DNA from: Marsupella aquatica
Lineage: Eukaryota; Plantae; Marchantiophyta
DNA length: 64,000 nucleotides
NCBI GenBank assembly: GCA_973895155.1
Contig: OZ316893.1
Location: 7,526,963 to 7,590,962 of the forward strand
Reading direction: 5' to 3'
Below, piece by piece: positions 329 to 35,539 of the stretch (the first letter of the stretch is position 1; every line of letters starts with the position of its first letter). The position numbers and the translations under genes were made by a program. A model generated the notes under the pieces. That model was not told where the DNA came from and did no database searches. It saw nothing but the letters and a program-made list of their open reading frames with translations.

Positions 329-648
329 TTTGTCGATAGAGATGCTGAAGTCGGGGCTTGATTGGAAAATAATGAAAGACCTACCAAAATCAATGTAACA
401 TCATCAATTTGACGTCAATAACCCTAAACGTCCTTCCAAGCTACGTGACAGAAATAAGAACAGGGTCACAAATGATGTTTTTTTACTATGATGTACCTTG
501 CAACATTTCTTATTGTTTCACATACGACGTTAATAAAAATCTGCGTTGTGTTAGAAGACGCTAAGTTAGGTTGACGACGTAAAGTAATCGAGTAACATAG
601 GTATATACAACATAGTTTGAAAGAACGCAACCCTAAAAGTCAGACTTT

Positions 649-3600
649 TGGTTTTTTATCAGTGTATGCACCGAATAATACTGGGGAACGGACCTTGCTG
701 TGGAATGATCTTCGGGATGAACTCCCTTGCAACCGTTGGGTTGTTTGTGGGGATTTCAACATGACAGAATTTTGCTGTGACTCCACGGGCGTTTCACCTC
801 TACTCGCTGGACGGGAATTAGAGTTTTGGAGGTTTCTGAAGACCTGCCTCGACTTACAAGATGCAATTACCATTCTGAACGAGGTGACAGGTTCCAGGTT
901 CACTTGGCGTAGGGTGCGCAATGGTATACTTCTTCAGTCCCGCCTTGATCGGTTTTACTTCAGTGAGAAAGGCAGATGGACTGACGAGATTGTTGATCTC
1001 ACTCATGACGGGACTTCTGCACTGTCTGACCATGATCCAGTGATTATTTCTTTCCGAATGGGTTCCATTGCATTGGTTGAATCACAAAGGCGACGAGGCA
1101 CATACTTTAAGGCTAATCCGACTGTGCTCAGGGACTCCGCAAATCTGGAACGACTTAAATTGGCATGGACAGACGGAACTGAGGATGTTGTTGACCCCCA
1201 CCTGAAATTAGATCGGGCCTTCCATAGGTTTCGTGTCTGCTTCATGGATCTTCAGTCCTTGAAACGACCTCAAGTGGTCGAATTGGCTGAACTTAAAGAA
1301 AAGCTACGACTTCTTAAGATTTCCATCATGGATGACTACTCTATAGACAGCATCAGGGATTTCTCCTATCCCGAAGACTGTGTTCGGACGTTGGAGCTAG
1401 CGGAGGCACATCACAACCGCAGGCTCTCCCGGATTAAATGGCTTGGCCAAGGGGACGAGCCTTCTAAGTTTTATTTCTCCTTAGTGAAAGCTAAATGTCA
1501 GAGGGAGAAAATGGAGGTGCTACTAATAGAAGGCGGTGAGATGATTCTGGAGGAAACACTAATTGTAGAGGAAGTGCAGAGACACTACGAGGAATTATAT
1601 TCTCCACCTGAGATGAGTGCAGCACTCGTGAGCGAGAGGATTGCTGCCCGCAGGAGACTGAGCAGCCACACTCATTTTGCCCCTTCTGCGGTTGAGATCC
1701 GGAAACTTGCAGCTCTTCCATCCATACAGGAATTACATGAAACATTGATGCTGCTGCCCGCTGACAAAGCCCCAGGAGTGGACGGGTTGACAGCCGAGGT
1801 TTTCAAGTGCTGTTGGGAATTTATGAAGGTTGATATTCATAATATGGTCTGTGAGTTTTGGCAGACTGGAGAACTGGCACATTGCATCAAAGAAGGGGTG
1901 ATTCGATTCATCCCCAAGAAAACTGACAAGAGGAAACTGAGCGATTGGCGACCTTTAACTATGCTGACCACTATGTACAAAATCTTGGCTAAACTGCTGG
2001 CTGTGAGACTGAAGGTGCTTCTCCCTAAGATAATCAATCCTCAGCAGACAGGATTTATCCCAGGTCGCCATATCTTAGAAAACATTTCCCTTACTTGGTT
2101 AATGAACGACTGGCTGAGCTACACTGGAACTCTTGCTCTCTTCCTTAAACTTGATTTTGAAAAGGCTTTTGATCGAGTGGACCACTCGTACATCTGGGAC
2201 ACGATGCACCTTCTGGGACTTGGCCCACATTTTATCTTCTTAGTTAAATCACTCCTCAGTAATGCAAGCTCTAAGGTTCTCGTCAATGGGCTATGGACTG
2301 CTGATGTCCGGATGCTTCGGGGTGTGCGACAGGGCTGCCCCTTGTCCCCCCTTCTCTTTGCCATTTCGACACAACCGTTGATGGATTGTTTCAGTGCAGA
2401 AATCATTGCTGGCAGGCTCCAAGGCATCCAGGTCTCTCAGTTTCTGAATATCTGCTTTCGACTTTTTGCGGATGATTTAGGACTTTTTATCCCTGCTACA
2501 GAAGTAGCTTTCAATCAAGCCCAGGATGCTATCCATTGCTATGAGATGGCTACGAGAGCTAAGCTCAATCTGAAGAAATCTGTTGTTATTCCTTTTTCTG
2601 TTGATGTGATCCCAGACTGGTTGAAGGACACTGGGTGTTTTATTAGTGAACCCGGCGTGGTGCAGAAGTACTTGGGTGCACCCTTCGGGAATGGATTAGC
2701 GGAGAGCCAACTCCATTGCTTCTGTCTCGATCGTATTGGGGCTAGGCTCTCTTCATGGTCTACACGTTTCTTATCATTTACTGGCAGATTGCTCCTGGTG
2801 AAACATGTCCTCCAGGCCATTCCAGTATACCACATGATGTTCCTACGGTCACCGAAGGTTTTGACCAAGAAACTGATTGCTCTGAGCAGAATCTTTCTAT
2901 GGGGCACTAATGTGCTGGGGGGCAGGCGTGTCCTGTTGGTGGCATGGGAGAAGCTTACTCGTCCCAAGCTGGTTGGGGGCCTTGGTCTGAAAGAGTTCCG
3001 AAGCCATTCGGATGCTCTTCTGAGCAAGTGGTTCACTGAGGCTCTTGACCATCCGTCATCTGAATGGGCTTCTCTGTATGCTGAGAATCTCACTCTAATC
3101 AAATGGAGGAACTACAAGACGATCCGCAGGAATAGGTACTCTATGTCGGACAAGATGCTGCTTAGCACCCCACGTTCTTTTGGGAAATTCATTTATACTG
3201 GTCAACTGTGGGCTGCTTGGGAACTTGTGCGAGCCAACCTTATTTTTATTCCGGGAGTTTCTGCTATCCCTGGTCACTGGGGTATGGAGGATCTGCTACG
3301 TAGTATGATTGGCTTTTATGATCTCCCTGAGTCTAACATACTTGCGATAGTTAAGATCTGCGGTCGTCTGGGATCCCGTACTGTTGCGGATCTATGGTCT
3401 CAAGCTGACAGGGAATGGAAACCCGTGACTGATCTTGTCGTACGGTTCAGGGGATTTTCCTGGGAAGTGAAGCAGGGGACACTTGCTTTTATCCGGGCTA
3501 TTCACCTATCTGTTTTCCGGGGATGTGCTTTTGACTCAATGGCTAGGCAATGGAGATGGTTAGATAAGGACACTGTTCCCCATTGCTTTGAGCTATCTAA

Positions 3601-4594
3601 CAGCCGGGTGTATGAAATGCTCCGCCCCAAGGGCTCTGATTTCTGCCGGCTCAACCGGATCTGGAATGAAACACTAACTGAGGCTGCCTGGTGTAGAGTT
3701 TGGACAGTGGTGTGGACGGCTGACCTCTCTACTAAGGCTAAAACTTTTGTATGGAGGATATTGGCACAAGGACTTTTCTCTGGTTCCAGGGCGTTGAGGA
3801 TGTCTAAATCAGATGGAACTTGTACTCTGTGTGTGGGCACTGTGGAAACTATCCCCCACATTTTCCTTTACTGCAGACATGCGATCTGCTGTTGGAGGGT
3901 GATCCGAGGCTGGCTGCTTGGTGCTTTAGACCTTGGCCTTTTGTCTATCGTTGGTTTGCTTCACTCCAATACGGGGAAGGGACCTCTGACTACACTACGT
4001 CTTTTCCTATTGTATCAATCCCTATGGTGCTTATGGCTTGCACGGAACTCTCAGACTTTTGACCGATCCAAGTTGAGGGTGTTCGATCAACTGTTGATCT
4101 TCTCAGAGACCCTTGATCACCTGAATGCAGTAGCCGCATCCTCAGTCCTGGGCAAGAAGCATAGAAGACTTACTCAAGCTATCTCGATCTTAACTGTAGA
4201 ACAGAATAGAATTCTCCGGAGTGGTGTACGTCGCACTGTTACTCACTGACTTGTGTTCTTTTTGGAGATGCAGCATATGAGATGGTTAACTAGGAATTGC
4301 TCTATGATTGATAGTATACTGTAGGTCAGAGGTTTCTTCATAGTAAAAGGGATTTTACTAGGATAATCTAAGCACTGCTGGATCCCACTCTATGAAGTAT
4401 CTAGTCTGATCACTGAGCTATGTTGCTCGGTTACTCTATTGGGAATCCCTTGGCTTGTATACTGCTTTGTTGTTGCTGCGGCATAGCTCTGTTTTTTTTC
4501 TTTCCGCCCTGGATGGCCTGCCGCCTTTTGGCCTGCTTGGTTCCCCCATCTGTGGGGTTCACGCGGAATAAAAATTAAATTAAAAAAAAAGAAA
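649..4594 (+). mobile_element. 5'-truncated L1/Tx1-like non-LTR retrotransposon (LINE)
   Basis: 14-bp TSD AAAAGTCAGACTTT at 635-648 and 4595-4608, AATAAA plus A-rich tail at ~4567-4594, and an uninterrupted ORF2. Confidence 0.93.
650..4249 (+). CDS. LINE ORF2: C-terminal part of APE endonuclease, reverse transcriptase, zf-RVT
   Basis: Endonuclease motifs SVYAPN, GDFN, SRLDRFY, SDH. RT motifs KAPGVDG, WRPLTML, LDFEKAFD, GVRQGCPLSP, LFADD, KYLG. C-terminal CxxC...H...C. The listed ORF start at 617 lies in flanking DNA. Confidence 0.93.
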   Translation, partial: GFLSVYAPNNTGERTLLWNDLRDELPCNRWVVCGDFNMTEFCCDSTGVSPLLAGRELEFWRFLKTCLDLQDAITILNEVTGSRFTWRRVRNGILLQSRLDRFYFSEKGRWTDEIVDLTHDGTSALSDHDPVIISFRMGSIALVESQRRRGTYFKANPTVLRDSANLERLKLAWTDGTEDVVDPHLKLDRAFHRFRVCFMDLQSLKRPQVVELAELKEKLRLLKISIMDDYSIDSIRDFSYPEDCVRTLELAEAHHNRRLSRIKWLGQGDEPSKFYFSLVKAKCQREKMEVLLIEGGEMILEETLIVEEVQRHYEELYSPPEMSAALVSERIAARRRLSSHTHFAPSAVEIRKLAALPSIQELHETLMLLPADKAPGVDGLTAEVFKCCWEFMKVDIHNMVCEFWQTGELAHCIKEGVIRFIPKKTDKRKLSDWRPLTMLTTMYKILAKLLAVRLKVLLPKIINPQQTGFIPGRHILENISLTWLMNDWLSYTGTLALFLKLDFEKAFDRVDHSYIWDTMHLLGLGPHFIFLVKSLLSNASSKVLVNGLWTADVRMLRGVRQGCPLSPLLFAISTQPLMDCFSAEIIAGRLQGIQVSQFLNICFRLFADDLGLFIPATEVAFNQAQDAIHCYEMATRAKLNLKKSVVIPFSVDVIPDWLKDTGCFISEPGVVQKYLGAPFGNGLAESQLHCFCLDRIGARLSSWSTRFLSFTGRLLLVKHVLQAIPVYHMMFLRSPKVLTKKLIALSRIFLWGTNVLGGRRVLLVAWEKLTRPKLVGGLGLKEFRSHSDALLSKWFTEALDHPSSEWASLYAENLTLIKWRNYKTIRRNRYSMSDKMLLSTPRSFGKFIYTGQLWAAWELVRANLIFIPGVSAIPGHWGMEDLLRSMIGFYDLPESNILAIVKICGRLGSRTVADLWSQADREWKPVTDLVVRFRGFSWEVKQGTLAFIRAIHLSVFRGCAFDSMARQWRWLDKDTVPHCFELSNSRVYEMLRPKGSDFCRLNRIWNETLTEAAWCRVWTVVWTADLSTKAKTFVWRILAQGLFSGSRALRMSKSDGTCTLCVGTVETIPHIFLYCRHAICCWRVIRGWLLGALDLGLLSIVGLLHSNTGKGPLTTLRLFLLYQSLWCLWLARNSQTFDRSKLRVFDQLLIFSETLDHLNAVAASSVLGKKHRRLTQAISILTVEQNRILRSGVRRTVTH

Positions 4595-4608: not shown

Positions 4609-4975
4609 GTTGTTTTCACATTGCTTTGAGGAAAACATTACCTTTTCTACAATCTTGTCTCCAATGGTGTCTGGTCGATACCATGGAAGCCCAAAGTGTT
4701 CTTCTGGGCAGTGAGTGTGATCCTGGTACACCCCTAAGCTATACAAGATGCACCCACTTGGGCACATGTGGATAGTCTCTAAAGCCAATCCAATTGGGCT
4801 AACAAAATCTTAGCCTCCCTCACACATCCAGGGAGAGTGTTTGGTTGGGGCAAGAGTTTGGTGTGGAAAAATTGGAAGAGTGCATCTGGATGGACATGTA
4901 TGGACATCCAAACCATTGAAAACTCCTTGCAAATTCAACATCAACAAAGTTGCACCCAACTTGTATTTGCAAAAC
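4609..4975 (-). pseudogene. Degenerate CACTA transposase fragment
   Basis: KLGATLLMLNLQ and IHMCPSGCILY...C...WYRPD align by eye with RLSAILGLMNLQ and VHACVNDCMLF...RYDP of the transposase at 8436-9644. Confidence 0.7.
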
Positions 4976-5219
4976 CACAAAAACCACTTCATGCAATTAG
5001 TCCAAGTAGCTAGATGGCATGCTTGGCACTACAGCTTAGACTGCCCAATATGTAGTGGATGAAATTCCAAAGTTGTGATAATTAATGGACAACCTTAATA
5101 CTGTGAGGAGGTCAATTGCAAGATTGAGGGGGGCAAAAGGACGCAAAAAGGATTAGCTCAAAAAGGAGAGACAAAGGACTCAAATATCATAAAGATTTAG
5201 TTGAACACCCACTACAACA

Positions 5220-5705
5220 TATTTGACACTTTTGCGAAGGTATTTTTGTCGACGCTCTTGTATTTCCGATGGGCGGCGCTTTGCATATTTTGCGAATCAA
5301 CCCGCATCGCAATTTGCGATTCTATCCCTATCGCAAATATAATAGCTGAAGCGCATTATATCGCTAATAAATTGCGAAGTAAGTGGTTTTGCAATTTTTA
5401 CCGAAATGCGTCGAATGGAAAGGCACCTTCCAAAGACGGAAAAATTGCTTGCCGACTCCGAAACTAACTCATGTAAATATTTGCGAAGAATATTGGATTG
5501 AAAATGTTTTGCGATAGTAGTTGTTTGACAAGTTTAAAAATGTCGGAGGATGGAAGATTTGCGAAACGCTGAAAATATGAAATTTGTGATTGATTTTGCA
5601 TCACAAGTTTGCGAAGAGTGTAGTATGGAAATATTGAGAAACGAGAAGCTTCATATAAATTGCGAGTCCGGTGAGAGTTTGTGAGCTTCGCAAATTGTTC
5701 GCAAA
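5220..5705. repeat. Left subterminal TTGCGAA/TTCGCAA repeat cluster of the CACTA
   Basis: Many copies in both orientations. Matching clusters lie at ~11940-12170, ~13440-13630 and ~14500-14900. Confidence 0.8.
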
Positions 5706-6170
5706 CTAAAAATTAAGATTATTGTGAGGTGAGACAATGAAGAGGGTGGATGGTCCAATATATGGATGGGGCAGGAGGGAAGAGGAAGGGAGGATGGAGG
5801 GAGGTACAATGAAGGATGGAAAAGGGAGGGAGTACAATGGAAGAGGAAGGAGGGAGGAGAAAGAGGAAGGGAGGAGGAGGGACAGACGTACCACGGAGGA
5901 GGGAAACACGAGGGTGAGAATGAAAATTATGGAATAAGTAGGAAATAAAGTTATATTGAGCAACAGAGGTTAGATAGAAAGTTGCATGTAAAATTCACAA
6001 GTGATCACAATAAAACAATACAATACATATGTCATGAGTATGACTCATTCAAAAGTGAATGGCAAATATAAATATAGACAATCCTTTTTTTTATATCACC
6101 AAACATGAACAAATCAAATATAACATGAACAAATGTCTAGGCTGGACCCAAGTGCATATAAATATGTCCC

Positions 6171-9100
6171 TCACACTTGGTCCTCATCGGCCTCAAGGTC
6201 ATCTAGGTCTGATACAATAACATCTGGCTTCTCAGAAACAATGGAACGAGAACGTGGCACATAGGTGATGACAATTGACCACTCGGTGTCTAAGGGGTAT
6301 GGAATGTAGAAACATTGCTCCAAGTGTGATGGGAAAGCAAATGGTTCTGACGTTTGCCAATGAGATGCTTGAACACTAGTGGCACTTGTCTTCAACCGTG
6401 TAAACCCACTCTCATCTTGAAGTACAGTGCAATTTTGACCAACAAGGTTCACTTTGAACCACTTGCACTTGAAGACATATTCCTCAAACTTTGAATGGTT
6501 GTCATATGATACCACCAAGATCTCCTCTATCTTCCCATAGTGTGGCACAACATCTCTAACAATGTTCCTGTCATGGCGGCTGCTTCTGGAGTCTTGAGAA
6601 AATTCCCCTTGAACTCCACAATCAAAAGTACGACCCCTCTTCTCATCAAGGGAAGAAACCCTAAAAGTAACAAAACCCACAAATTTTTATTACACTATAA
6701 AAGATACCATTAATGTAATAATCATCAAAATATGACACCCATCCCTAAATAGCCAAAATCCACATGGCCTATGGCATAAATATAGAAGCCAACATTACAG
6801 TTATGGATGTCATTAATGATAATAGAAAGTTTTTAAACAATAGAAATAACTAATCAAAATGAGGTCTACATGAATTAATAGAGGAAGAAAGGTTAGGTAC
6901 TAGTGGACCTGAAGTGTCTCCCTTGTGTCCACATAGCCGTCTTGGATGTCACCACTCTCAAAGGGCCATGAACAATGGTCCGAACGTCATCTGTGATGGT
7001 AGGAAAGTGGGACACATCTCCTCCTTGTGTCACCATGTCATCCAACTCAAGCAACTTTTGCTTCATATACTCATGCATCTTAGGAAAAATTCTTGCTCTT
7101 TGACTTGTTCTCTTGGCATTCTCATAAAACTCTCTCCATTTCTCCATGATATTACTATTACTCAACATAAATGTTGTCAACTGTGACCACTCTGTTGATG
7201 TCAACATGCGTGTTTTTGTGGCACCTGTTAAACGGTCCTCCTCCTCTTCTCTTTCGTGGACAAGTAGGATCAATGGTGGCCAAGATGTTACTACAATAAA
7301 ACATACTCTCTGCTGCCAAGTATCCTGTAGCTATGCTTCTCTCCACCCGTGCACGGTTACGTACATAAGCCTTCAACACCGCCATGTAACGCTCAAGCCA
7401 ATACATCCATCTACAATGCACTGGACCTGCAATGGCAACCTCCCGCACAAGATGCACAAGTAAATGAACCTGACAATCAAAGAAGGAAGGAGGAAGGGCT
7501 TTCTCCAACTTGCATACCACCTCAGCTGCCAATACCTCCATCCCAGGGATCTCTTCTACATATATCTCCTTTGAGCATATCCATCTCAACAAACGACCCA
7601 ATGACCAGATGGCATCTTGCACTTCTTCACTCCCTATACCTATAATTGCCACTGGCAATATATGCTGCAATAGGCGATGATAGTCATGTGTCTTCAGATA
7701 TCGTGGCCACTTGTGATTGTCCTCCATCCCAAAAGCTTTTCGAAGGTTGGCACCATAGCCTGTAGGAAACCGCATCTCTCCTATACGGTTCCAAAATTCA
7801 CGTCTTTGGCCAACACTCAACACCCAAGGAGCAGAAGGACGATTCTCCACACCTGTGATAGGATCAATTGTCACCCAAACATCTGGATGCATTTCCATCT
7901 CCTCGCATACCTCCCTAAAATTAGTGTCCTTCTCCCCATAAAAATGCTTTATCAAAGCCTTCCCCACATTTCCCTCTATGTGCATGGGGTCTAAAAGATG
8001 GCGGATCTTCAACTCAGACCAATAGGGCAAAGTGGCTAGTATACTCCACCTGGTCAAACCTGTCCTATCAAAGGTGAAGGAATCATTTGGGTCTGCCACC
8101 CTATTAGCTAGTGACTTCCAATGTGCAAAACTTGTTGCATCAGGAATTTCACGCTCATCACCAAATGGCATGTCAAAGGAGGAGAATAGAAGTGGGTCAA
8201 ACCTCATCTCATGCCCCATGGGAAGAAACTTTGTATGCCCAATATAAACAATCTTTCTAATCCATGAACAATATGTGGCCATGTCCTCTAAGCTTGGGCC
8301 ACAAGTAGAGCAAGCTTTGTACCCCTGAGTTTGCAATCCAGAGACAAAACCAAACCCTGCTTACATAGAAGAAATCAAACCATGCAAACTTTATGTTAGG
8401 GTTGTCACATGAGAAACATCAATAGGAACTACACATTATTGAAGGGTTGCAAATGGCATGGAAGTCATCTTACCAGGATAGTCATGCATTGTCCAACAAA
8501 TGATCCCTCTCAATTGAAAGACACGTGGAAAACCTCCTGTAATTTTCCTGCCATCATATGCCCACACTCCATTCCATAATTTTTGAAGTTCTCCAACCAA
8601 TAGTGCCAAGTAAGTGTCAAAGTTCTTCACCTTTTTTGGACCTGGGATAATCAAAGACAATAAAAGGAACCCCTTCTTCATGGATAGCCATGGTGGGAGG
8701 TTATAATTCATGACAACCACAGGCCAAACTGATGTAGGTTGCCCCTTTCCTCCAAGTGAATGAGGGCTAACTCCATTAGATGCCAATCCTAGCCTCACAT
8801 GGCGAGGATCATGTGCAAAGTCTGGCCATGTTGCCTCAATATGTTTGTGAGCAGGGGAGTCAACTGGCAACCGCATGACACCAGACTCTGATCGATGAGT
8901 CTTATGCCATACCATCAACTCTGCCAAGTCAGAACACCGATACATGTGCAACAACCGAGGAATGATGGGAAACCAACGAACAGCCTTCCTTGGCACCTTC
9001 TTTGTTAGCATGTTGGGGTCATAGCGAGGCTCATCACATGTTGTACATTGTGTCATGTTTGCATTGGCCCCATGAAATAACATGCAATCATTCACACATG

Positions 9101-10976
9101 CATGAACAATATGATATTCCATGCCAATAGATGAGAGAACACTCTTTGCCTCCTTCCAAGTTGCTGGCAACACATTCTCAGTGGGCAACATAAGGTCATG
9201 GCAAAGTGCAAACATATCAGATAACAAGGCATTGCTTGCCTTGTGTTTGGCCTGTAGGTTCATCAACCCCAAGATGGCTGAAAGACGACTCAAACGAGCA
9301 CCCTCATAGATAGGTGTTCGGGCATGTTCCTCTGCTTCTTCCCATTGGCGTTGTCCCTCAGGGGTATGCCTTGGGCGTGGATCATTGGGGGGCACCTGCC
9401 CTTCATTGGGAAGGTCATCACCAAGGTTGTCGGCACCAAACCAATCAACCATAAAGTCATCCATGGCTCTATCCTGGTCATCAGTTACTTGTTCATCCGT
9501 CCGAGGTACCTCTTCATCAGGGTTACTGCTTCCACTAGCACTTGATGAGGAGTGTGACTCTGATCCATGTCCTTCTTCTGGCATACCCATTTCTCGATAT
9601 GTTGCTCTCAATCTCCGTGGTAACATATTTGGAGAGGGTCGCACATTCTAAAAACAAAGCAAACAATTGAAAGTTATATTGCAAAGAGAACACACACAAA
9701 AATGGGCTAGGGGTGTGCAAAAATGAAATAATATTGGTTGTGGTGCAAATACAAAATGTGGCCAAAGGCCATATGTAGTGCCCTTTGATATGCAACATAC
9801 CACCTATGACCCTTAACTTAACCCTAATCCCACTCATAGTGAGTAAATAACTCATCCCCTGAGTTAATGGTCCTTGTTGCTACAACTAGGCAATGGTCAT
9901 GATGATATGTCTGGCCATAAGGTGCTGGCGGAGGACCCTCAATAAAAACCCACTCACAATTTTGCCTACGCTTAGGGCGAGTCCCCACGGTACTGTTTAT
10001 GAAACCATCAATATTCCCAGTCCGTATGGGGTCCCCATCTATGACACGCTGCTCACTATACCTTCTAGTGTTTCCATCAAAAGTATCCATGTCCAATGCA
10101 TAAGTCTTCCACTCAGGGTGTTGTGCAAGGATCATGTTCCAATGTCTTCTCTTGTAGATGGGTCCACCATAAGGAAACAAAGTAGGCCCCTCTCAGCCGC
10201 GTCCACCTCTACCACTCTCGGCGTCTACAATGATGTCCTCACAGGCAAAAACTCCATAGCCATGTCTATCCCCAAGTGTGGAAGGTTTGATAACCCAACG
10301 TCTACCCCAAACCTCTACCTCCGCACCGTAGGAAAGCTGTTGTGGCAAACCAAGAGTCTCAGGATCCCAGTCCTTGATGATAGGGACACATCTGCCAGTG
10401 AACTCACAATCACCCCACCGACCCGTAACCACTGCCTTGTACAAATCAGTATCCCCTCGGGCCCGCCTCTTGGAACGCTTTCTCCCTCTTGGGACAATAG
10501 CCTCAACCCCAACTTCCCTAGGACTGGTGGGCCTTGCCGCTAGACCCAAGGCTTTTGAGAATGCATTGCCTATAGCATCTAGAACACCTTGTGATGGGAC
10601 ATAGGGTGCTTGTGCTGCAGGTCTAGGCCTATTGGATACCTATTCCACCGAAACCAAAACAAACAAAAGTAGGTGTGAAATTGCAAACCTTCAACCATTG
10701 AGTAATGGGAATAGGGTAGGAAAACTAAGGCATAACACTTACCATATGAGATGAAGAAGCCCCTGCCGTATGACGTCCACAATGCCCATATCTCTCAATA
10801 TGTTGGGCACATATGTAAGATTTTTGGGAAACCTGACCCCCACATCTGGAACATTCACAAAGTTGACGGGGTGGACCGCGAGGAGGAGGTGCGGTCGTGT
10901 GATGTTGAGGTGGAGGTGGTGTATCTTCATCAGAGGAGGACGAGTCTGTGGTGGAGATTTCAGAAGATGAAGACAT
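6171..10976 (-). CDS. CACTA TnpD/Tnp2-type transposase, spliced, with one frameshift near 7255
   Basis: Predicted exons 10976-10743, 9647-8474, 8356-6909 and 6660-6171, with GT-AG sites in compatible phases. Motifs HACVNDCMLF, WFPIIPRL, SVWPVVVMNYNLPPW, DYPG, LDPMHIEGNV, LKTHDYH, VHLLVHL, WMYWLER, HYGKIEEI, FKCKWF and QCFYIPYP. Confidence 0.9.
9824..10639 (-). pseudogene. SET-domain (lysine methyltransferase-like) exon inside the CACTA, with one in-frame TGA at 10193-10195
   Basis: ORFs 10193-10549 and 9824-10180 share one frame: WVIKPSTLGDRHGYGVFACEDI...LFPYGG...YAL...IDGDP..TGNIDGFINS...QNCEW...LVVATRTINSGDELFTHY. This matches SET motifs I-IV. Confidence 0.85.
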
Positions 10977-11429
10977 ATCCCCTGTAACAAGATATAATTA
11001 AAATGGGCATGTTATGACCAAAACATACCACAAAATGATATAAATCAAAGTTCCCAAATAATGATGACAAGAAACCCAAACCAAAATGACCATAGCAATA
11101 AAAAAGGTACCTTTATGAGACCCGGGCTCAGCAGTGCCAATAGCTCTTGTGGCTCTAAGATAATTAATGAACCCAATCTGAAAGTATGAGGGAAAAGCTG
11201 CAACCATTCCATGTATATGTAAGCACAATAATCTGGACCAGACAAGAACAAAAAACCCTATATACATGTCCCCTTTATACATAGTGGCAACCAAAAGTGT
11301 TAAGTACATGAAAGGAACACTTTAGCCGATCATGCAATGTTTACCTTTCAGATGCCCGGGCTCTCACAATGCATATGCATTAGTATCAAATCATCAAAAA
11401 GTGCCGCACCCTGCAAGCTATCATATATT

Positions 11430-11830
11430 CCCCTCCTTTGTTAGCAAAACCCATGCCAATCCCCTTTTGATTCATAAACCCAATGAACCTCTCTTAAACC
11501 CAAAAGGCTGCAATATAAATCTCATGAAACCTTGCTTTGTCTTATCCAAACCTTCAACCCCAAACCGCATCCTACCTATTAAACCTAAATCTGACTTACA
11601 CACGAACCCAAACCTTTCTTCAACCCTAGAGACCTTTCTATTTAAAAACCCCAAACCCTAAAACCCTAAACCCAAACCTTACTTATTTCTTGTAAACCAA
11701 ATCCCACACCTTTATTATTTCTTCTAAACTAATGTAAACCCAAACCTTAGCCTAAACCAACACCATACATAACCCATTAACCTGAAATCTGCCTAACCCT
11801 TCAAACCTGCCTTCAACTATTATCTAACAC
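11430..11830. promoter_or_regulatory. AAACCC(T)-rich spacer between the divergent CACTA genes, candidate bidirectional promoter/leader
   Basis: Dense degenerate telobox-like AAACCCTA/AAACCCA repeats between the head-to-head ORFs. Confidence 0.35.
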
Positions 11831-12275
11831 CCAAAACATGGCCAAAAAGCATTCCAAATATGAGTATAGAGGGGTCCACTTCACCTTTGAAAAAAACCCT
11901 TTCAAATGAAACCAACATTCCCCCAGGACGAGTTGCCAATGTCTTGCGAAGCCGCTTCCTTCGCAAATACCATCACAAATTAGAATTGAGGTTTGCAAAG
12001 CTACTGCTTTTGCAAGACCTTCAGAAAAACAGAGCCCGAGAGCATTTCTGCGAGAGAGCGAAGGTGTTGCGAAGCCTTTCACGTCGCAATGGTTTCGCAA
12101 AATTGAGAAACTATATGCGAAACAAGAAGAATCGCAACTTGCGAAACGGGTTGCTTCGCAAGTCTTTCCCGCTTGTACTTTTGCACTCGGCCGTGGCATA
12201 CTCAGCGGCATTTGACAAATTTCAAGCGTAGGGAGGGAGAAGGGAGCTCGCGCGCGCTCGGGGGGTGGCTTGGCT

Positions 12276-14246
12276 ATGGATTCCAGTGGAGCAAATGGAG
12301 GTGATAGGGCAGGGGTGAGTGAGAGTGGCAATGGGAATGAAGGCAATGGGGAGCAGGAGAGGAATCGATGGACCGATTTGATGGCTGAGCACCTCAATGC
12401 AGCACAGTTGAGCCACTTAGATTTGACTACACCAGCAGGGATTGCTTCTTTGAGTGCAATCCTTGGGCAAGCCTTGCAAACGGGAGTAGATGCAGGGAAC
12501 ATTGCAAGGGAGGAGGAGCAAAGGAGTGCAGCTCAACAGAAGGCAAGAGAGAAGAAGCGTAAGAAGGAGGAGAGGGCCAAGGCAGGAGTAGTCTCACCTG
12601 TTGCCCTAGAAAAGAAGAGGAGGAGAGAGGAACGAGATGAGATAAGAGCACAGCGGGAGGAGCAGCAAAAGAAGGAGGAAGAGAGGAAGAAGCTGCCTAT
12701 GATTGCCTTGATCGAAGGCATTCCTACTGAACTGGCCTACACCGGTGCAAAGAGCACTATCAGGCTTATGGTGCGCTCCAATTTTGCACGAGGAGTTGAG
12801 TGGGGGAAACTCAACAAGGCAGACCAGAAGAAAGTAATGAGTCAAATCAAAGATTCATTTCAAAATGGAGCAGAGATTGATGAACAGTGGCTTGCAGATA
12901 GAATTTCCAATTCAATGTCTCAAGCACGGTACCATGATAGGAAGAAGGTAAGGGCCTACCTGGCAAACTTGGAGGAGTACAGAAACGTGAGGAGGCCACT
13001 GCAATTCACTGAGGACGTGTGGAATGCCTTTTACAAAGTGGAGGTGCGGATGAGAGCTGCCAGGAACCTTCTCTTCTGGAAGGAGATGGAAGCCAAGGCA
13101 CAGAAGGCCGGGAAGTCCGACCGAGAGCTCAAGGCAATGGCTGAGAAAGTGTCTCACATGCAGCACATTGTGGATGAAGTGGGTGCACCACCCCAAAAAT
13201 TCATCCTTGCAGCTGAGCGAGTCAGCAAACGGCCCAAGACCACGCACAAGATGGGCCAAGGTGGACTTCCCGGCCTCAAAGCACACTTTGTGAGTGGGCC
13301 CTCTCCTCTCCTCCCCTGCTTCTGTTTCCTTGCTTTCAATTGCTATCCAAACCTGCAATGCCCCCCCTGCATACCTCTTGTTTCTTTCTTACGGCCTGCC
13401 TTGTACTTTAGGTCACCCTGACACATTGCGTGCCTTAGAGATTTCTCGGAATTTTTTAAAAACAGAGTTTGCGAAGCTTTTGCGATGCGGGTTGCTTCGC
13501 AAATGTTTTGCAAAGTCTATCATGGCATTTTTTAAAGTTGTAAATGCGAAGCTATTGCGAAATAACTCGCTTCGCAAACTACTTCGCAAACAGCCAATTT
13601 ATTTGAATTTGCGAAGTGGGGAGTTTCGCAAGTGTGTATTATGTTTTAAAAAAACCGCTAAGGGTTATTGAGCCCAGTTTTGTGTTAGGGGGCACCCTAT
13701 TAGCACCTCCATGCATTTTTCTTGGGTTTATAGCATATTAACCTCGATCTATTTTGGTTTTGGAATGTTTGGTTGTGGTAGTATAAGAGGTACCGCAGGA
13801 AGATAACAGCAAAAGAGATGGAGATAGGAGCTGCGCATGGAGCCAAACATCTCTTTGACTTGGTTGACGCAGAGTTGGCGACTGTAAGTGCATGTATCCC
13901 CTTCAGTTTTTCCCACCCAATCCACTTATCTTTTCATTCCGTAAACCTAAACCAATTTGGCGTTGTGTTGTGCAAACAGGATGATGAGGATGCCAGTGAT
14001 ACCAGCAGCACCGATGAGAACAATGAGGGGACCACGACAAAGGGGCCCAAGGTAGGAGGGAGTAGTGGATCTGGACCAGTAGGAGGAGTTTCCCAGCAGG
14101 AGGGGGAGGAAGAGGATGAGGACGAGGACGAGGAGGAACCAGATGTGGAGGAGCAGCCAGCACCACCTCCTGTGCCACGTCCGGATCGTCGCAAGAGGGA
14201 CAAGGGGAAGAGGCCGGCGACAAGGAGTAGGAGGACCCCATTCTAG
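12276..14246 (+). CDS. CACTA second gene (TnpA/Ptta-like accessory protein), 3 exons
   Basis: Predicted exons 12276-13289, 13782-13883 and 13980-14246, all phase 0 with GT-AG. It has a charged coiled coil, W..L...Q..V, 'RP.QFTEDVWNAF', 'THKMGQGG' as in Ptta/En-Spm accessory ORFs, and an acidic/basic tail. Confidence 0.7.
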
Positions 14247-15171
14247 AGCTTGGTGGTGTAGTGCCTATGGGATGCCCATTTACTTAGTGTAGTATATAGT
14301 TTTGATATGGGTAGTCTTATAGGGACCTAGCTTGTCATATGACATCCATCTAGGGTTTAGGGTTTAGGAAACCCTAATTTTTGTGTACCTATCAATTTTC
14401 TATAAAGCAATTTTGATTCAGACCTCATTCTCCATGTTGGACGACAAGACCCCAACCATAATTCAAAACTCTAAATCTAAACCCTAGCCTCAAGACATCT
14501 TGCGAAACCTATGCGAACAACCCAATTCACATATTTACCATATTGAAGGTATCGCAAACATTATGCAAACCACATACGTTCACAAAAATGCGAAGCCATG
14601 TTCATGGCATAACTACCATTAACTTAATATCGCAAACCGATTACCAAACTTCTGGGATTGCAAATATTTAACTGCTTGATTATTATCGCAAGCCTCTCGC
14701 GACGCCCACGGAGTCGCTTAAATGTGAGTCCTTTGCGATTCTATTAGTGTCGCAAGTTGCGAAGGTCTTGCGAAAGACCGGATGCGAACCTTTGGGCTTC
14801 ACAGTTTGCGATTCTATTGCGATGCGCGATACTTCGCAAAGGCGAGTTTTGTTTTTTGATTTCCTTTGTTGTTTGCGATGCTTTCAAGTTCGCAAAAGGT
14901 GTGGGTAGTGTTGTAGTGACCACTTCCAAAAAGGTTGGACACACTTCCCAAATTGTTGTGCACACTTCCAAGAAGATTGAGACTTCCTAAAAGCCTGGAC
15001 ATACTTCCAAAGACTTGGCATGCAAGATCTCACCTTCCAATCTCAACTAACTAATCCTAGCCATTTGGTGTAACACCTGTCCACCCCTTGTAAATTGGGA
15101 AGGATTGGAATCCTTTTGGTGGAGAAATTGGAGATCCTTTTTGCCCCCCTCAAGCTTGCAATTGACCAGGA

Positions 15172-16598
15172 TGGAGAACCCTCAAATAGTGGTATTCTTG
15201 CTTCAGTTTCCAAGTGATCCCAATCTTCTTGATCTACTTCCATGATAGGTTGCTCGGCGTCAGGCTGGTGCATGAGGTCCAAAGTGGATGTCAACAAGGT
15301 GGGCAAAGGAAAATTCTTCAAGGGATAGGGTCATGTCCCTCATCTCCCTCGTCGTCAACATCATCATCCAACTCTCCATCATATGCATCATGGTACTCCT
15401 CATCCTGATCGTCCATATCATCATCATCAAGGGGATGACCCTCAACATCCTCCTCATCTGAGAAATTTAAGGTGGCACGAACGTGAAAGGCATGGGCTGA
15501 TGTAGTCATCATTGATGGGTGAGATGTGGGACTAATAATTATGTACACCATCCTAGAGTTATCAATAATTATGCAATGATAGATCACAATTAGAGAAAGG
15601 GTTTCCATGATAAAGCTTACAATGAAATTGAAATAATGCAAAATGCAAGGGCCACCCCATAATGAGTAACTATGTCATGTACACATGTAGTCATCAATGC
15701 CAATCATAATCTACCAGAATCTCTTCCCTGCTCTAATGGTGTAGGTAACATGTGTCAAGATGTAATGCGTGCATGCTACAGGCAAACGAGGGTGACTCTG
15801 GTCATGGTACTCGTGCCACTCAGCGTTTGGCCTAAACCCGAAACGCCAAGAACCAATAGTGTTGTTGATATAACCCACCAAGTTCCCCGTCCGAGGCAGG
15901 TAACCATCAATCGGAGCATACCTAGGGTCCAACTTTAGTGACATGCCATATCGACTAAAGGTTGGACTCTGTTGGGACAAGATGCGCCATCTCTGAGCCA
16001 AATACTTTGGCCCATAGAATGGAAACAACTAAGGCAAATCATTGGGTGCACAATCAGTAGGGACCATGATATCCACAAGAGCAAATACTCCAAAGTCCTA
16101 CATGAGTCCCCAATGTGGAGGGGAGGAGGACCCATGGGCGGTTCCAAACTATAATAGGTTCTCGAAGGTGGAGGTCCATAGGGAGTCCAAACTGGGCTAG
16201 GAAGGAGTCCTTTAAGATGTACAAGGCTCTCCTTTGCAACTCTCTTGGTGCCCGAGATACCAATGCATCAAGAAAAGGGCATGGGGGCGAAACAATCCTA
16301 GGTGGACAAGTGTCAATCGATCGGGGTCTAGTGATCACCACTACTCCCCTCTAGATAGGGTGCATCCTAAACACTCTCCTCCTCCTACAAAATACACGGT
16401 CTATTGCCCTCAATGTGGCTGGCAATGCGGATGGATGGATGAGTGGTGCAAACGCACGACGTGCAATGTCTCTCAAGCGGTCCACAGGCAAAGACCCTGG
16501 GCCCCCACTCCCAGCAAAATATATGTACCCACTATGAACAGATCCCCCCCTTGGTACTGTTGAGCATAGACGACACTCATAACGGTAAGCACATGACA
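15172..16598 (-). pseudogene. Older, diverged SET-CACTA relic (SET exon followed by transposase N-terminus)
   Basis: WNRPWVLLPSTLGTHVG/(frameshift)FGVFALVDI..*LFPFYG..YGM..IDG..TGNLVGYINN..PNAEW..ILTHVTYTIRAG at ~16150-15711. An acidic exon follows, then EARIPLFEGS (compare HARTPIYEGA). Confidence 0.8.
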
Positions 16599-17088
16599 CA
16601 TCCAACGCGCAAGTAGTCAACACAAGAGATACGTGGTTCACCTCCTCAAGGCTACGTCCACGGGAACACACAAGAGAGCTTTACTGAACTCTAAGCCCGT
16701 CGACCATACCAAGTCTCCATAGTGTAAGCTCTCCTCATCTCTCAAGTGGCTCCATAACAATGAGCCTAAGTTCCACTTATCCAAGCAAACACCGCTTGGC
16801 ATATAGTGTACATCCTAGTTAACCTAACCACATCTCCGACTATGGTTAGCCTAACTACGGTTACATGTCGTAACCCTAGACCTTGAGTAAATACCTAATA
16901 ATCTCCCCCTTGACTCTGGTCTAGGGGAGGGTAATACTGTCTATATGATTCTTCAGCGGGAAGTTCTGGATGAAAACTAACATGGTTTCCCCTCTCTAAC
17001 TAGAGCAAACCAGAACTAAGCCGTAGCCTATTACTAGGAGTGAAGAAGAGCATATATCAATAATTACAGCAAATGTTAAGAAAAACCC

Positions 17089-20000
17089 TTACTTGTGACG
17101 TAATTGCAAAACTTGCAGCACGTCACGATATCTAGAGAAACTTTCCAAAGGAATCATTTTGGTAAATGCGTCAGTTAGGTTGAGTTTACCGTCTATCTTG
17201 ACTAGCTCAAACAAATTATCAAACATAGCCTGCCTGATAAAATGGTACCTGACATCTATGTGCTTCACTCTACTGTCCATCACCTGGTTCACAGCAAGGT
17301 GGAGCGCACTTTGACTATCACAATGGAGCTTCACATTCCCCTGTGGCAATCCCATTTCAGTGATAAGGCTATCCAACCAAATCGCTTCCTTCGCTGCTTC
17401 CGCTACTGCAACATACTTCGCTTCTGTAGTAGACTGAGCAATACACTTTTGCAAAATAGATCTCCAACTTATGCATCCACCGCCAAGTGTGAACACGTAC
17501 CCTATTGTTGATCTCCTTCGGTCCAGATCTTGTCCATAGTCAGACTCTACATAGCCAATCAATGATCTCGCATTCTTTGCATTTGCATCAAATAAAAGAC
17601 CATGATCCACGGTACCCTTCAAGTACCTGATAATCCACTTCACTACTTCCCAGTATACCTTCCCTGGATTTGACATGTACCTGCTCACCTTGCCCATAGC
17701 CATGGCAAGATCAGGTCTAGTGCAAGTCATCAAATACATGAGACTTCCCACTGCCTTATCATAAGGAACTTTTGACATCAGCCCCTTCTTTGTCGCATCT
17801 GTGGGACAAAAAGCTGATGACAATTTGAAGTGTGCAGCCAAAGGGGTACTTACTAGCTTGCTATTCCCCATGTTGAACCTAGCAATTACCTTCCTCGCAT
17901 AACTACTTTGTGTCAACCATAGCTTACCAGCCTCCAAGTCCCTAGTGATCTCCATACCCAAAATCCTCTTAGCTGGCCCTTGGTCCTTCATCTTAAACTC
18001 TGTACTTAGCAGTGCCTTAAGCTTAACAATCTCAGACCTATCCTTGGCCGCAATAAGCATGTCATCCACATAAAGTACTAAAACAATGAACCCAAAGACA
18101 ACATTCTTCATCGGTTTCAAATATACACAAGGGTCAAACACACTCCTGTGAAAACCTTGTGACCGAATCCAATCGTCAAACGCTTGTTCCACTATCTTGG
18201 TGACTGCTTCAACCCATACAAGGATTTCAGCAATTTGCAAACCAATTCCTCCTGTCCTCTCTTCACAAAACCTAGCGGCTATTTCATGAAGATCACCTCT
18301 TCCAAGGTGCCATAGAGGAAAGCTGTGACAACATCCATCTGATCTAGCAGCAGACCAAACATTACAACAAGCACACACAATAGCCGTATCGTAGAGTACT
18401 TAGCAACTGGTGAGAAGACCTCATTGTAATCCACACCTTTCTCTTGTGTGAATCTCTTTGCTACCAACCTAGCCTTGTAGACCTTTGATCCACTTCCCGG
18501 CCTCATTCACAATTGGAGGACCCAAAAGGAATGTCACACTCAAAAGTGACCATAGTTTATTATGCTTTAGGATATCATTTGTAGGGTGTAATGACATGAT
18601 ATAGAAAATTTGATGTACTATACTTAATAAACATCTTGTAGGTTGGTAACAATCATTAAACTATCTAGCATTTGAGACTTTGAAGCTTTCCTTATATGTT
18701 CTTCAAAGATTGATAAAAGGACTTATCACGCAACGGGTCACATCCTTTCATGACTCAAAAGGACTCTAAAAAATGCATTTTAGACAATGAAATTTTACCA
18801 AAGCATGCATACTAATAGAATAATCTTATATTTCAAAACTCAAATATTGACACACACTAAACCTTTATGTACAGGACAAAAATAATCAGTAATTTTGGCT
18901 TATTTAGGGCCATCAACAATAGGATCCCTTAAAACAGTTGAAAACTTGATTTATCTACATGGTGAGGTAGGTAACACCATGTAAAATAGTCTTGTGAAAA
19001 AATTAGACTTAAATGTCTTGAGATAAAATCATGATGAACCTTTTTCCATGTTATGAAAGTCATTTTTCACTAAAAAAACATGTTTTTGAGTCCTAAAAGT
19101 GGTTTCTGTGAGGTACACCCAATTGTGAATGAGGCCTCCCGTAGACTTATCCTTCAACTTGTATATCCACTTGCTGTCCACCACTTGTTGACCCTTAGGC
19201 AGCTTAACAAGCTCCCAAGTTTTGTTGTCCTTCAATGATTACATCTCCGTTTGCATTGCTGCACAGTCCACTTCTGCTTCTCCTTTGAAGCACTTGCCTC
19301 ATGAAATGAAGAAGGTTCCCCTTCTTCCAAAATTAACGCATCACCCTCATCATCAACTGCAAAATCATCCTCTTGCAGTTGAGATGAATCAACCCACTGT
19401 CCATACCTAAGAGAAGCGTGTACAGTGCGACCAGATGTTCTTCTAGCCGATGACTCTGGTTGAATTGCGTTTACTGGTACGATTTGAAGCTCAGCAGCAT
19501 CCACTTGCTGCTCACCAGCATCAATAAACTCCTCTTGTTCCTCTAGCACAGGAACCAGCTCCATGCTTGGAGCACCTCCTTCTCTTCGATCATGCACTTC
19601 ATGATCAATCTCCCCCTCAACGAGATCCGAGATAGGAGATTTTCCTTTGTCAATACAGGAGACCTGAGTATTCTTCCCCTCCTTCAATAATCTGGATTCA
19701 TTGAAGGAAACATCCCTACTGACAATGAACTTACAGGCAATAGGATCCCATAGCCTGACTGTAGGCCTTCACACCACTCTGATACCCAAGAAAAATACAT
19801 TTCTTGGACGTAGGATCCAACTTGGTCCTATTCTGCTTTGGTATGAGAGCATATGCATCACTTCCAAAAATTATCAAGCCATGATAGTCTGCTTGCCACT
19901 TATAACACATTTCAAATGGTGTTTTAAAATTGATTGCACTAGAAGGAGAAAGATTTACCAAATAAGCTGCAGTATTGATAGCTTTCGCCCAAAATTCTTG

Positions 20001-21883
20001 TGGTAAACCTGATTGGCTCAGTATACTTCATGACCGCTCCAATAGTGTTCGATTGAGCCTCTCAACGACACCATTCTGCTGCGGAGTATAAAGTGTGGTG
20101 AGATGGCGAGTTATCCCCTATTCTGCACAATACTCTTCAAATTCTATTGAAGTGTACTCCCCGCCGTTGTCTGACCTTAGACTCTTCACCTTGGTATCCA
20201 AACACTTAATCGTGTTTCCCGTCTGATTCTCCACTTGGGCATTCCACTTTGTAAAAATGGACAAGACATCAGACTTATGCGTCATGAAATAAATCCATAC
20301 AAATCTTGAGTAATCATCAATGAAGGATACATAGTACAATTTTCCAGAATGTGAGGGAGTCGAGGATGGTCCCCACACGTTACTATGTATGTACTCAAGA
20401 AACGCTTTGGAATGATGAGTTCCAACACCGAAAGAACAACAATGCTGCTTTCCAAAAATGCAATGCTCATAGAATTCCAATTTACAAGACTGCAAATCAT
20501 AAATGAGCCCATTCTTCCGCAAGATAGCCAAACCCTTCTCACTCATGTAGCCTAACCGTGAATGCCACAGTTGAGTCATTTTCTTGTGAGACTTGGTTAC
20601 ACTGGCCTCTCCACATACTGTATTGCCCTGCAACACATACAAATTCTTCTGTCTGCTCCCCTTCAAAATCACTGTCTCTCCCGACATGACTTGAAGTTCA
20701 CCATCAATTACTCGCCATTGATGACCATTTGTATCCAACACACTGAGTGAAATCAAATTCTTACGCATGCCAGGTACAAACCTGACTCCGGACACTGTGC
20801 GCACAATGCCATCAAACATTTGAATCTTTACAGACCCAATACCCTCAACTCGACAGGAGTGATCATTTCCCATCAAAACTGAACCGTTTGACACAGAATA
20901 AGAATTGAAATACTTGCGAATGTAACAAATGTGAAAGGAGCAAGCACAATCAAGAATCCACACATTATTTGCTCTCCTAGATGATGTGCACAGGGCATAC
21001 TCCTGACTTCATAAAACATAATCATCATTGAGTAAATCAACTTCTTTATCCGCACTAGCCACATTGGCTGATGAAGAGTCAACTGCCTTAGCCTTACAAT
21101 CCCTCTTAACGTGACCAACCTTGTGACACTTCCAACAGACTAATGGCTTTCTCTCCTGGGACTTCCCCCTTGAAGTAAATCTTGTCCTAGATTTACTTCG
21201 TCCCTTGCCATTCGTGCGCTGCTCGGGACGCCGAGCTGTGACCTCCCACGATTCACATTCAAGGCAGCACCAAATGACGATGTTGTCTGGGCTTGACCCA
21301 ACTTCTTTTGTGCATCATCTGACAGCAAAGAGCTTACCACCTCATCATATGAAATAGACTTCAAGTCTCTATACAAGAGAACCTGCTTCAAACCCTGATA
21401 AGATGGAGGTAAGGAGCTGAGAAGAAGCAAGGTCTTGTCCTCTTCTTCAATGCCCTTACCGAGATTAGACAAATTAACAACTAGGCTATCAAATTCATCC
21501 AAGTGATCCTGGAGCTTGTTCCCCTCTTTGAGCTGAAGGCTCATTAAGAGAGACTTCTTGTACAATCGATCATATGCATCCTCCCAATAGTACTTCTCCC
21601 TTAGGGCTTTGAATAGAGATGCACAATCTGCGTAGTCATCCAACTTCTTGATGATATGCGGCTTCAGATAAAGCATCACCGCATTCACTGCAATTACTTG
21701 TTCCTGCCTCCACCTCTTTAGTGAAATCTCCTCCTCATCATCGTACATCTCTTGTGTAGAGAGAAGATGATCTAGGCCCATAGCGCAAAAAACTCCTTTC
21801 ACTTGCTTCTCCCAGAGCAAGTAGTCCGTATGCCCATCATACTTTTCCACCTCAAACTTGATACCTCCGAACTTGGATGCCAT
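17089..21883 (-). pseudogene. Copia gag-pol in the order gag, zinc knuckle, protease, integrase, RT, RNase H; frameshifts and stops present
   Basis: LLLSSLPPSY, WILDCACSFH, LWHSRLG, FIDDYSR, LRSDNGGEY, YKARLVAK, QMDVVTAFL, LYVDDML, TRPDL, KHIDVRYHF. Confidence 0.92.
18499..19136. mobile_element. 638-bp MITE inserted in the copia RT
   Basis: Perfect 18-bp TIR GGCCTCATTCACAATTGG and 4-bp TSD TCCC (18495-18498, 19137-19140). Removing it restores KDKSTGSGSKVYKARL. Confidence 0.9.
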
Positions 21884-24229: not shown

Positions 24230-24235
24230 GAGAGA

Positions 24236-35276: not shown

Positions 35277-35539
35277 TTCTGCTTTCGAGCTCTCCCCACC
35301 CTTCTCTTCTATGAGCTCCCTGAGCGCCGACAGTACGTTCGGAGAAACTCTAGAATTGGAATTTCAAGACCAACTTTCAAGACTGCCGTCGTCTCCTTGC
35401 TGGCCATCTCTGTTCTCGAGCTCTCTATCTAGAAGGTACTTAAGATAACACAACCCCTTCATAAGTAAGTACATAAAGACTTGCAAGAGACGGTGGCCCA
35501 GTTGGACAATCGGAGATCCCAGCCGCATGACCATATCCA

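Follow-up and report, generated by a model that had tools for sequence, protein, structure and literature searches.

A SET-domain exon carried by a bryophyte CACTA transposon family: a candidate chromatin-marking enzyme in Marsupella aquatica

Transposons that carry a gene for a SET domain are already in print. In the available parts of the sources, such genes are described in HarbingerS and MuDR elements of Phytophthora (PMC12730594), and in Helitrons and in PAG2 of Plavaka, which belongs to the EnSpm/CACTA lineage (bioRxiv 10.1101/2025.02.11.637652). In this work, we describe a SET exon in a CACTA/EnSpm element located in a 64,000-nucleotide stretch of the liverwort Marsupella aquatica (contig OZ316893.1), hereafter the window, whose own positions are used throughout. 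The first-pass annotation of the window had proposed a CACTA encoding its own SET lysine methyltransferase, and overstated its novelty in view of the elements named above; transposon-borne SET genes are known, and it is the canonical-CACTA form that was not found in the literature searched. Our reading, to which we give a probability of about 45%, is that the CACTA in the window is a dead member of a bryophyte family whose SET exon yields a small nuclear lysine methyltransferase, which would mark the histones of the family's own copies and keep these copies open.

Full-text searches returned no paper on a SET exon in a bryophyte CACTA; Repbase, subscription journals and preprint supplements lay outside their scope and may hold an entry. 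The closest described system is PAG2 of the red algae, which, in the published part available, is likewise a transposon of the CMC/EnSpm superfamily with a SET domain (PF00856) as standing cargo. It differs in that its SET domain is fused to an N6-adenine DNA methylase in a separate gene, within elements of 17–19 kb, whereas the window element, compared by layout, has a stand-alone SET exon inside the Tnp2-type transposase gene of a canonical CACTA of land plants. The DNA methylase domain that marks PAG2 occurred in none of the 51 family proteins scanned, and the transposase is of the Tnp2/DUF4218 type. HarbingerS, the Phytophthora MuDR and the SET Helitrons, as far as the available parts describe them, belong to other superfamilies and other hosts (oomycetes). 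In maize En/Spm and Arabidopsis EN/SPM3, TnpA and TnpD arise from one gene by alternative splicing and TnpA acts against silencing (available parts of PMC13547354 and bioRxiv 10.64898/2026.08.24.746577); the term "SET domain" occurs zero times in the text of either source as available. The window CACTA resembles them in that an accessory chromatin-affecting protein and the transposase would come from one unit. On the other hand, TnpA is, in those same parts, a DNA-binding regulator that induces hypomethylation and not an enzyme, and the window element carries ORF2 as a gene of its own on the opposite strand. Two further systems lie nearby. SETMAR places a SET domain beside a transposase, but is a domesticated host fusion; VANC of the VANDAL elements is a transposon-coded anti-silencing factor, but not a SET-fold enzyme.

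The features of the element are listed below, with its terminal inverted repeats (TIRs) and target-site duplication (TSD); the loci mentioned are 38 homologous metagenome loci, which are discussed further on.

5210..14918, no strand: CACTA/EnSpm element of 9,709 bp, with the TSD ACC on both sides and an empty-site joint
5210..5239, plus strand: TIR on the transposase 3' side, 10 bp perfect and about 30 bp imperfect
6174..6660, minus strand: last transposase exon, with DUF4216
6896..8356, minus strand: middle transposase exon(s), with the C(2)C and H motifs and DUF4218 with the catalytic Glu
8474..9647, minus strand: transposase exon with a phase-0 acceptor and Tnp2 (PF02992, E 5e-38)
9648..9823, minus strand: AT-rich spacer of 176 nt from the SET stop to the transposase acceptor (9647), read as the SET 3' untranslated region and/or the end of a skipped intron
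9824..10639, minus strand: SET exon of 271 codons plus stop, with a basic patch (10492–10454), the SET domain and a phase-0 acceptor
10640..10742, minus strand: intron 1, 103 nt, GT..AG, with its donor kept in 15 loci
10743..10976, minus strand: exon 1, 78 codons, with a Ser/acidic leader, a Cys/His zinc-knuckle-like motif and a phase-0 GT donor
12276..14246, plus strand: second gene, divergently transcribed, in the ORF2/TnpA position, 55–59% identical in 11 loci
14889..14918, minus strand: opposite TIR, with 13 TTGCGA/TCGCAA repeats before it in 14480–14918

The TIR CACTACAACA reaches about 30 bp when imperfect pairs are counted, and the termini at 5210 and 14918 read CACTA...TAGTG, which defines the superfamily in the available part of PMC4158355. 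Of the CACT[AG] ends in the window, seven pairs match as 10-bp inverted repeats, and only 5210/14918 has a matching 3-bp TSD; a contig of run X3 represents the empty site, linking 5207 directly to 14922. The subterminal repeats number 13 copies in 5210–5720 too, next to the first TIR, and their density is 25–36 per kb in both end regions and near the second gene, vs 0.32 per kb in 16900–64000. Contig depth, which gives no copy number, suggests that there are many near-identical copies.

PF02992, PF13960 and PF13952 all score above the cut-off in the window transposase, which despite its lesions is recognisable as a DDE transposase of the Tnp2 type, its C(2)C and H motifs included. The element had been described as a complete CACTA with intact TIRs and TSD; this is correct for its structure (5210/14918, ACC), and not for its function, because the transposase has a deletion of about 10 nt with a frameshift near 7255 and an Asn for its first catalytic Asp (Asp in 6 of 7 loci). 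The SET frame has a single break, a TGA at codon 149 (10195–10193), as had been noted. With these three lesions the window copy is dead. At the TGA, 21 loci can be aligned and 17 cannot; of the former, 18 encode Arg (AGA) and 3 encode Lys. The TGA itself is certain, and its proposed origin from CGA is a fair inference, no sibling copy with CGA having been seen. The site does not figure among the 40 listed differences between run contigs and the window. Of the further CACTA features, a second ORF and subterminal repeats, a conserved second gene and TTGCGA repeats are present, but the gene lies on the strand opposite to the transposase, and a Pfam scan of 12276–14246 gave no match; its exon model is provisional beyond 13289.

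The range 9824–10976 reads as a two-exon gene, consisting of exon 1, the intron and the SET exon. Exon 1 also occurs in the homologs P0002 and P0005 and in distant Riccia members, and it is joined to SET in the database gene models P0002, from Calypogeia fissa (73% identical), and P0005, from Sphagnum. The transposase-associated domain PF13963 matched exon 1 weakly in one of ten proteins (P0096; E 0.031, below the cut-off) and did not match exon 1 of the window; an Atlas search with exon 1 gave no usable match. The donor and both acceptors, that of SET and that of the transposase, are in phase 0 in the window and in the loci, and of the 38 loci, 15 match the search pattern for the donor and 18 that for the transposase acceptor. 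Seven codons precede the first Met of the transposase exon, and they include N-I/V-R-P-S in the window and in most of 21 loci found with a looser pattern; this conservation suggests that these codons are translated, and hence reached by splicing from upstream. In addition, a diverged subfamily in run X1 stops aligning at about the exon edges, skipping 9777–9824, 10608–10737 and 6693–6907. The three conserved phase-0 sites suggest that exon 1 can be spliced to SET or to the transposase, and the transposase gene would then hold the SET exon inside its first intron and probably have exon 1 in common with it. The first-pass annotation missed this arrangement, as well as a second, divergent SET-CACTA in the window. 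An antisense ORF opposite the SET exon (9890–10543, plus strand) is treated as a shadow frame.

All of the SET blocks that had been reported in one frame were located in 10639–9824 on the minus strand: GYGVFA (10261–10244), FPYGG (10177–10163), GNIDGFINS (10018–9992), NCEW (9961–9950) and ELFTHY (9853–9836). Read with X at the stop, the frame matches the Pfam SET profile PF00856, the check that had been asked for (E 1.9e-5; 25.4 bits vs a cut-off of 22.4); some intact homologs score just below this cut-off (P0002, 21.7). The structure predicted for the homolog P0010 from 32 sequences has a predicted local distance difference test score (pLDDT) of 90.9 and a predicted template-modelling score (pTM) of 0.86. 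Searched with Foldseek, this model gave 280 PDB matches at E<=1e-3, and all of the 40 matches listed are SET proteins; the top ones are SET8 (E 2.6e-7), LegAS4 and MLL1, with EZH2 and G9a similar (E 3e-7 to 3e-5, TMq 0.40–0.50, 17–24% identity across the five). Atlas likewise returned SET. An earlier model (24 sequences, pLDDT 58) had no significant Foldseek match and was set aside.

Residues were counted over 140 aligned family rows. The canonical motifs of SET histone lysine methyltransferases are ELxFDY and RFINHxCxPN (available part of PMC9692433). In the first of these, the catalytic Tyr is present in 77/77 and the Glu in 84/84 rows; the second is represented by its two Asn, that of motif III (96/107) and the later one (100/101). 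The two Gly of GxG are kept in 96/100 and 98/103 rows, the motif-II Tyr or Phe in 101/103 and a second Tyr in 91/103; Trp or Phe follows the catalytic Tyr at +2 in 50/73. A basic patch lies upstream of SET in 43 of 55 long members, and the Pfam scans of family proteins found no pre-SET, post-SET zinc or reader domain. From these residues and the predicted fold, we consider it likely that the SET protein binds S-adenosylmethionine (SAM) and transfers a methyl group to lysine.

A phmmer search with the window protein found no PDB match at E<=10, and a shallow profile found no real PDB relative. A profile of 46 sequences was the only sequence search that reached one, with LegAS4 as its best match (E 5.6e-6). 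LegAS4 methylates lysine 14 of histone H3, with the cleft residues Tyr135, Ser158, Tyr159, Asn181, Tyr220 and Tyr231 (available part of bioRxiv 10.64898/2026.05.29.728679); the role of the catalytic-cleft Tyr is treated in the available part of PMC4919437. When numbered by chain position plus 49, the first five map to Y157, T179, Y180, N215 and Y268 of P0001, and the sixth has no counterpart. LegAS4/RomA of Legionella (PDB 5czy, 8swi) shares with the window SET a GN before motif III, the lack of the motif-III His (LegAS4 reads YINFS), an N-x-E-aromatic after motif III, the lack of post-SET zinc and a basic patch upstream. It differs by an identity of about 24% and by its ankyrin repeats and C-terminal helix, which the window SET does not have. 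The likeness is a lead, and not the assignment of a donor or of a substrate. A viral origin is not claimed, since the matches to SET folds of viruses are no better than those to cellular SET folds; two loci on viral contigs (L039, L040) were rejected as chance matches in an unrelated protein (12 bits).

The first protein search returned 42 proteins, with Calypogeia, five Sphagnum species and Riccia as named sources. The order exon 1, SET, transposase recurs among the 38 metagenome loci, 23 of which have the transposase directly downstream of SET (within about 150 nt); among the other 15, the sequence runs out at most about 230 nt from the match in 11, and SET is truncated on its 3' side in 4. 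The element end CACTACAAC lies upstream in 5 of the 38, two of these being probably the same locus. Copies with an intact SET frame, which the first-pass annotation had proposed to look for, do exist: 6 of 17 near-full-length SET exons are free of stops, and P0002, P0004, P0005 and L001 are among the naturally intact copies. Parts of SET and the transposase also share single gene models in P0029 (Sphagnum jensenii), in P0056 and P0104 (both Riccia sorocarpa), and in P0125 and P0132. When 1.84 billion representatives were searched with a profile, the family came to 129 clusters at 50% identity, of which 48 have E<=1e-30; Tnp2 is also present in 3 of the 49 longer clusters scanned, in addition to Riccia P0056. 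The 30 cluster members looked up include four from Riccia, one from Calypogeia, one from Ginkgo (E 3e-4) and one from Psilotum (E 5e-10). The distant members P0147, P0182 and P0118 (Psilotum nudum, Ginkgo biloba and Calypogeia fissa) have long unrelated N-termini and are possibly domesticated or carried by other elements; the Psilotum nudum record is named like a transcript assembly.

Ratios of non-synonymous to synonymous divergence (omega, dN/dS) were obtained by the Nei-Gojobori method with bootstrap. Between the window and single loci, SET has dN of 0.16–0.18 and dS of 0.65–0.69, giving omega of 0.23–0.28 (bootstrap upper bounds 0.35–0.43); for L002 against L012 and L001 it is 0.32–0.33, so that the overall range between families is 0.23–0.33. 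This is similar to ORF2 (0.28–0.30) and above the transposase (0.09–0.17). These comparisons of sequences support SET as a standing, selected part of the transposon family.

The second SET-CACTA lineage in the window was found with several nested insertions, among them a miniature inverted-repeat transposable element (MITE), a long interspersed nuclear element (LINE) and a retrotransposon with long terminal repeats (LTRs).

15714..16242, minus strand: second SET remnant, frameshifted and with stops, about 36% identity (E 3e-16), outside the element
15168..15231, minus strand: beginning of the transposase of the older element, interrupted by the MITE
4636..4962, minus strand: continuation of the older transposase, 28% identical to Riccia P0062 (E 3e-8)
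371–333, minus strand: further piece of the older transposase past the LINE, weak (E 0.43)
5110–5209 and 14922–15167: MITE of about 350 bp, with 29-bp TIRs starting GGTCAATTGC (5110/15167) and the TSD AGGA
16595–25903: Copia-type LTR retrotransposon, with a broken pol on the minus strand and 300-bp LTRs 96% alike

The MITE split the older transposase, and the CACTA was later inserted into the MITE; a contig of run X1 represents the joint without the MITE, linking 5097 to 15168. The upstream portion of the older element is cut off by the Copia LTR at 16595. In a family tree of 30 rows, restricted to family members and leaving out partial and fused models, the second SET falls beside P0060, on a branch that is deep and long. 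The older element has SET and then transposase, the same order as in the window CACTA, and since the two lineages are only about 36% alike, the SET-transposase link is old. Inside the older transposase lies a LINE ORF2-like frame (596–4249, plus strand, 1,217 codons), which is apparently intact and in which endonuclease and reverse transcriptase motifs were recognised by eye.

The mechanism that we propose builds on the element, its exon layout in the DNA, the linkage to the transposase across families, purifying selection and the active-site residues, which are observed, and on the fold predicted for a homolog. As read from the layout, a single promoter near 11.0–11.9 kb quite probably drives one pre-mRNA, in which exon 1 would be joined to the SET exon or to the transposase exons. 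The first product would be a protein of about 349 amino acids with the zinc knuckle, the basic patch and SET; skipping of the SET exon would give the transposase, by analogy with the origin of TnpA and TnpD in En/Spm. If the enzyme is active, a histone is its favoured substrate, though with less assurance than the splicing step. Methylated histone tails at the element copies would then offset host silencing and favour transcription and transposition. Targeting, the least supported step, might pass through the zinc knuckle or through the ORF2 protein bound to the TTGCGA repeats. The first-pass annotation had spoken of a transposon family that writes chromatin marks or counteracts them; a standing SET-bearing family is supported, and the marking is still a proposal. 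A bolder version, in which a SET of the bacterial-effector type (LegAS4/RomA-like) is an alternatively spliced exon of an ancient land-plant CACTA and writes a histone mark foreign to the host writers, which would shield the copies from silencing and make this an element that brings its own catalytic writer of chromatin marks to a genetically tractable group of plants, is in our view speculative and unlikely.

Several observations weigh against the histone-marking reading or parts of it. The splice model was read from the DNA, none of 14 longer exon-1 proteins joins exon 1 straight to the transposase, and the transposase exon has a conserved Met, its codon 8, at which the transposase could start separately. 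A single Sphagnum-type family from a few data sets accounts for most of the 38 loci (L012 groups with P0005), and therefore they are not 38 independent cases. Among 11 close Sphagnum-type copies, the proportions of non-synonymous and synonymous differences (pN and pS) in SET are equal (0.060/0.059), as expected of decaying copies, and nothing in this family points to selection on SET in recent times; in the transposase of close copies pN is below pS (0.071 < 0.111). Measured to the window, the first transposase exon has a dS of 1.3–1.5, roughly twice that of SET, and the lower synonymous divergence of SET is found both between families and among close copies (loci L001–L029), which may reflect constraint at the DNA level on an alternative exon, or a later exchange of the cassette. 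In place of the canonical motif III, the family has G[FY]INS...N, with both Asn kept, Gly or Ala instead of Arg in 106/107 rows and Ser in place of the His, which occurs in 0/106. The SET exon ends three residues past the catalytic Tyr, a tail length found in 33 members, and hence the post-SET lid is nearly absent and LegAS4 Tyr231 has no counterpart. Finally, the fold matches favour no single substrate class, SET8, MLL, LegAS4, EZH2 and G9a being alike (TMq 0.45–0.50).

Part of this evidence can be accommodated by other explanations. An active methyltransferase could have a non-histone target, such as its own transposase, the ORF2 protein or a host silencing factor: the layout implies co-expression with the transposase, the scanned family proteins have none of the accessory domains mentioned above, and small SET domains with non-histone targets are common. 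Nevertheless, the closest solved relatives by sequence and by fold are histone methyltransferases, and the basic patch resembles the nuclear localization signal with which RomA, in the available part of its source, engages nucleosomal DNA, so that we regard such a target as unlikely, if worth bearing in mind. The deviant motif III and the nearly absent lid would also suit a catalytically dead protein whose part is to bind histone tails or to keep host methyltransferases off; against this, the catalytic Tyr never varies, the SAM-contacting Asn and GxG are kept across lineages only 30–45% alike, and LegAS4 is active likewise without the motif-III His, which makes a pseudo-enzyme improbable. The splice model makes the SET and transposase isoforms mutually exclusive, and from this a self-limiting switch could be built, in which SET writes a repressive mark and inclusion of its exon takes away transposase message and at the same time silences the copy. 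Transposable elements of bryophytes do bear H3K27me3 and H3K9me (available parts of PMC11982613 and bioRxiv 10.1101/2022.10.24.513474), but the known transposon-coded regulators, VANC and TnpA, activate, and the sequence of SET does not ally it with the plant E(z) or SUVH families beyond the common fold; we hold such a switch to be rather improbable.

Two explanations deny SET a separate product or a role. The gene models that link parts of SET to Tnp2, among which P0104 retains the SET C-terminus, could indicate a real fusion protein, a mobile counterpart of SETMAR. Yet a stop closes the SET exon in the window and in 22 of 22 loci whose SET end fits the search pattern, the majority of the fused models break off SET ahead of motif IV and seem to be errors of gene prediction, and the strong donor at the NCE codons is in phase 1, so that splicing to the phase-0 acceptor leads to a stop; a fusion is thus very improbable. 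Passive capture of a host SET gene by a Pack-CACTA agrees with the broken window copy and with the equal pN and pS of close copies, but is hardly credible against the omega between families, the same position of SET in lineages 36% alike and the kept splice sites. The first-pass annotation had itself pointed to a SET near-identical to a host gene, present in one copy and neutral, as what would betray such a capture; SET is instead spread over several families under constraint and has no close host counterpart. The family profile at E<=1e-3 (129 clusters) reaches no host SET class in numbers, and the failure of the single protein to match the PDB points the same way.

Elsewhere in the window, a 472-codon open frame (33945–35363, minus strand) has no Pfam match and carries two 59-nt tandem-like repeats near its start; its D-G-x-x-W-x-F motif presumably recalls restriction-endonuclease-fold or Crinkler-like proteins. 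Host-gene exons were found at 38561–39190 (minus strand), encoding an EngB/YihA-like GTPase (MMR_HSR1), and at 49116–53332 (plus strand), ceramide/sphingosine-kinase-like. Near-identical direct repeats 2.5 kb apart, starting TGTTA, occur at 41019–43701 and are probably the LTRs of a small non-autonomous retroelement.

The SET genes of oomycete and red-algal transposons come with no tested function in the published passages available. The plant anti-silencing factors that are understood, VANC and TnpA, are DNA-binding proteins and not enzymes. Some bryophyte annotations of "SET domain-containing" proteins are transposon cargo rather than host genes. The long-kept SET exon in CACTA elements of mosses and liverworts, together with its naturally intact copies, makes histone self-marking testable in Marchantia or Physcomitrium.

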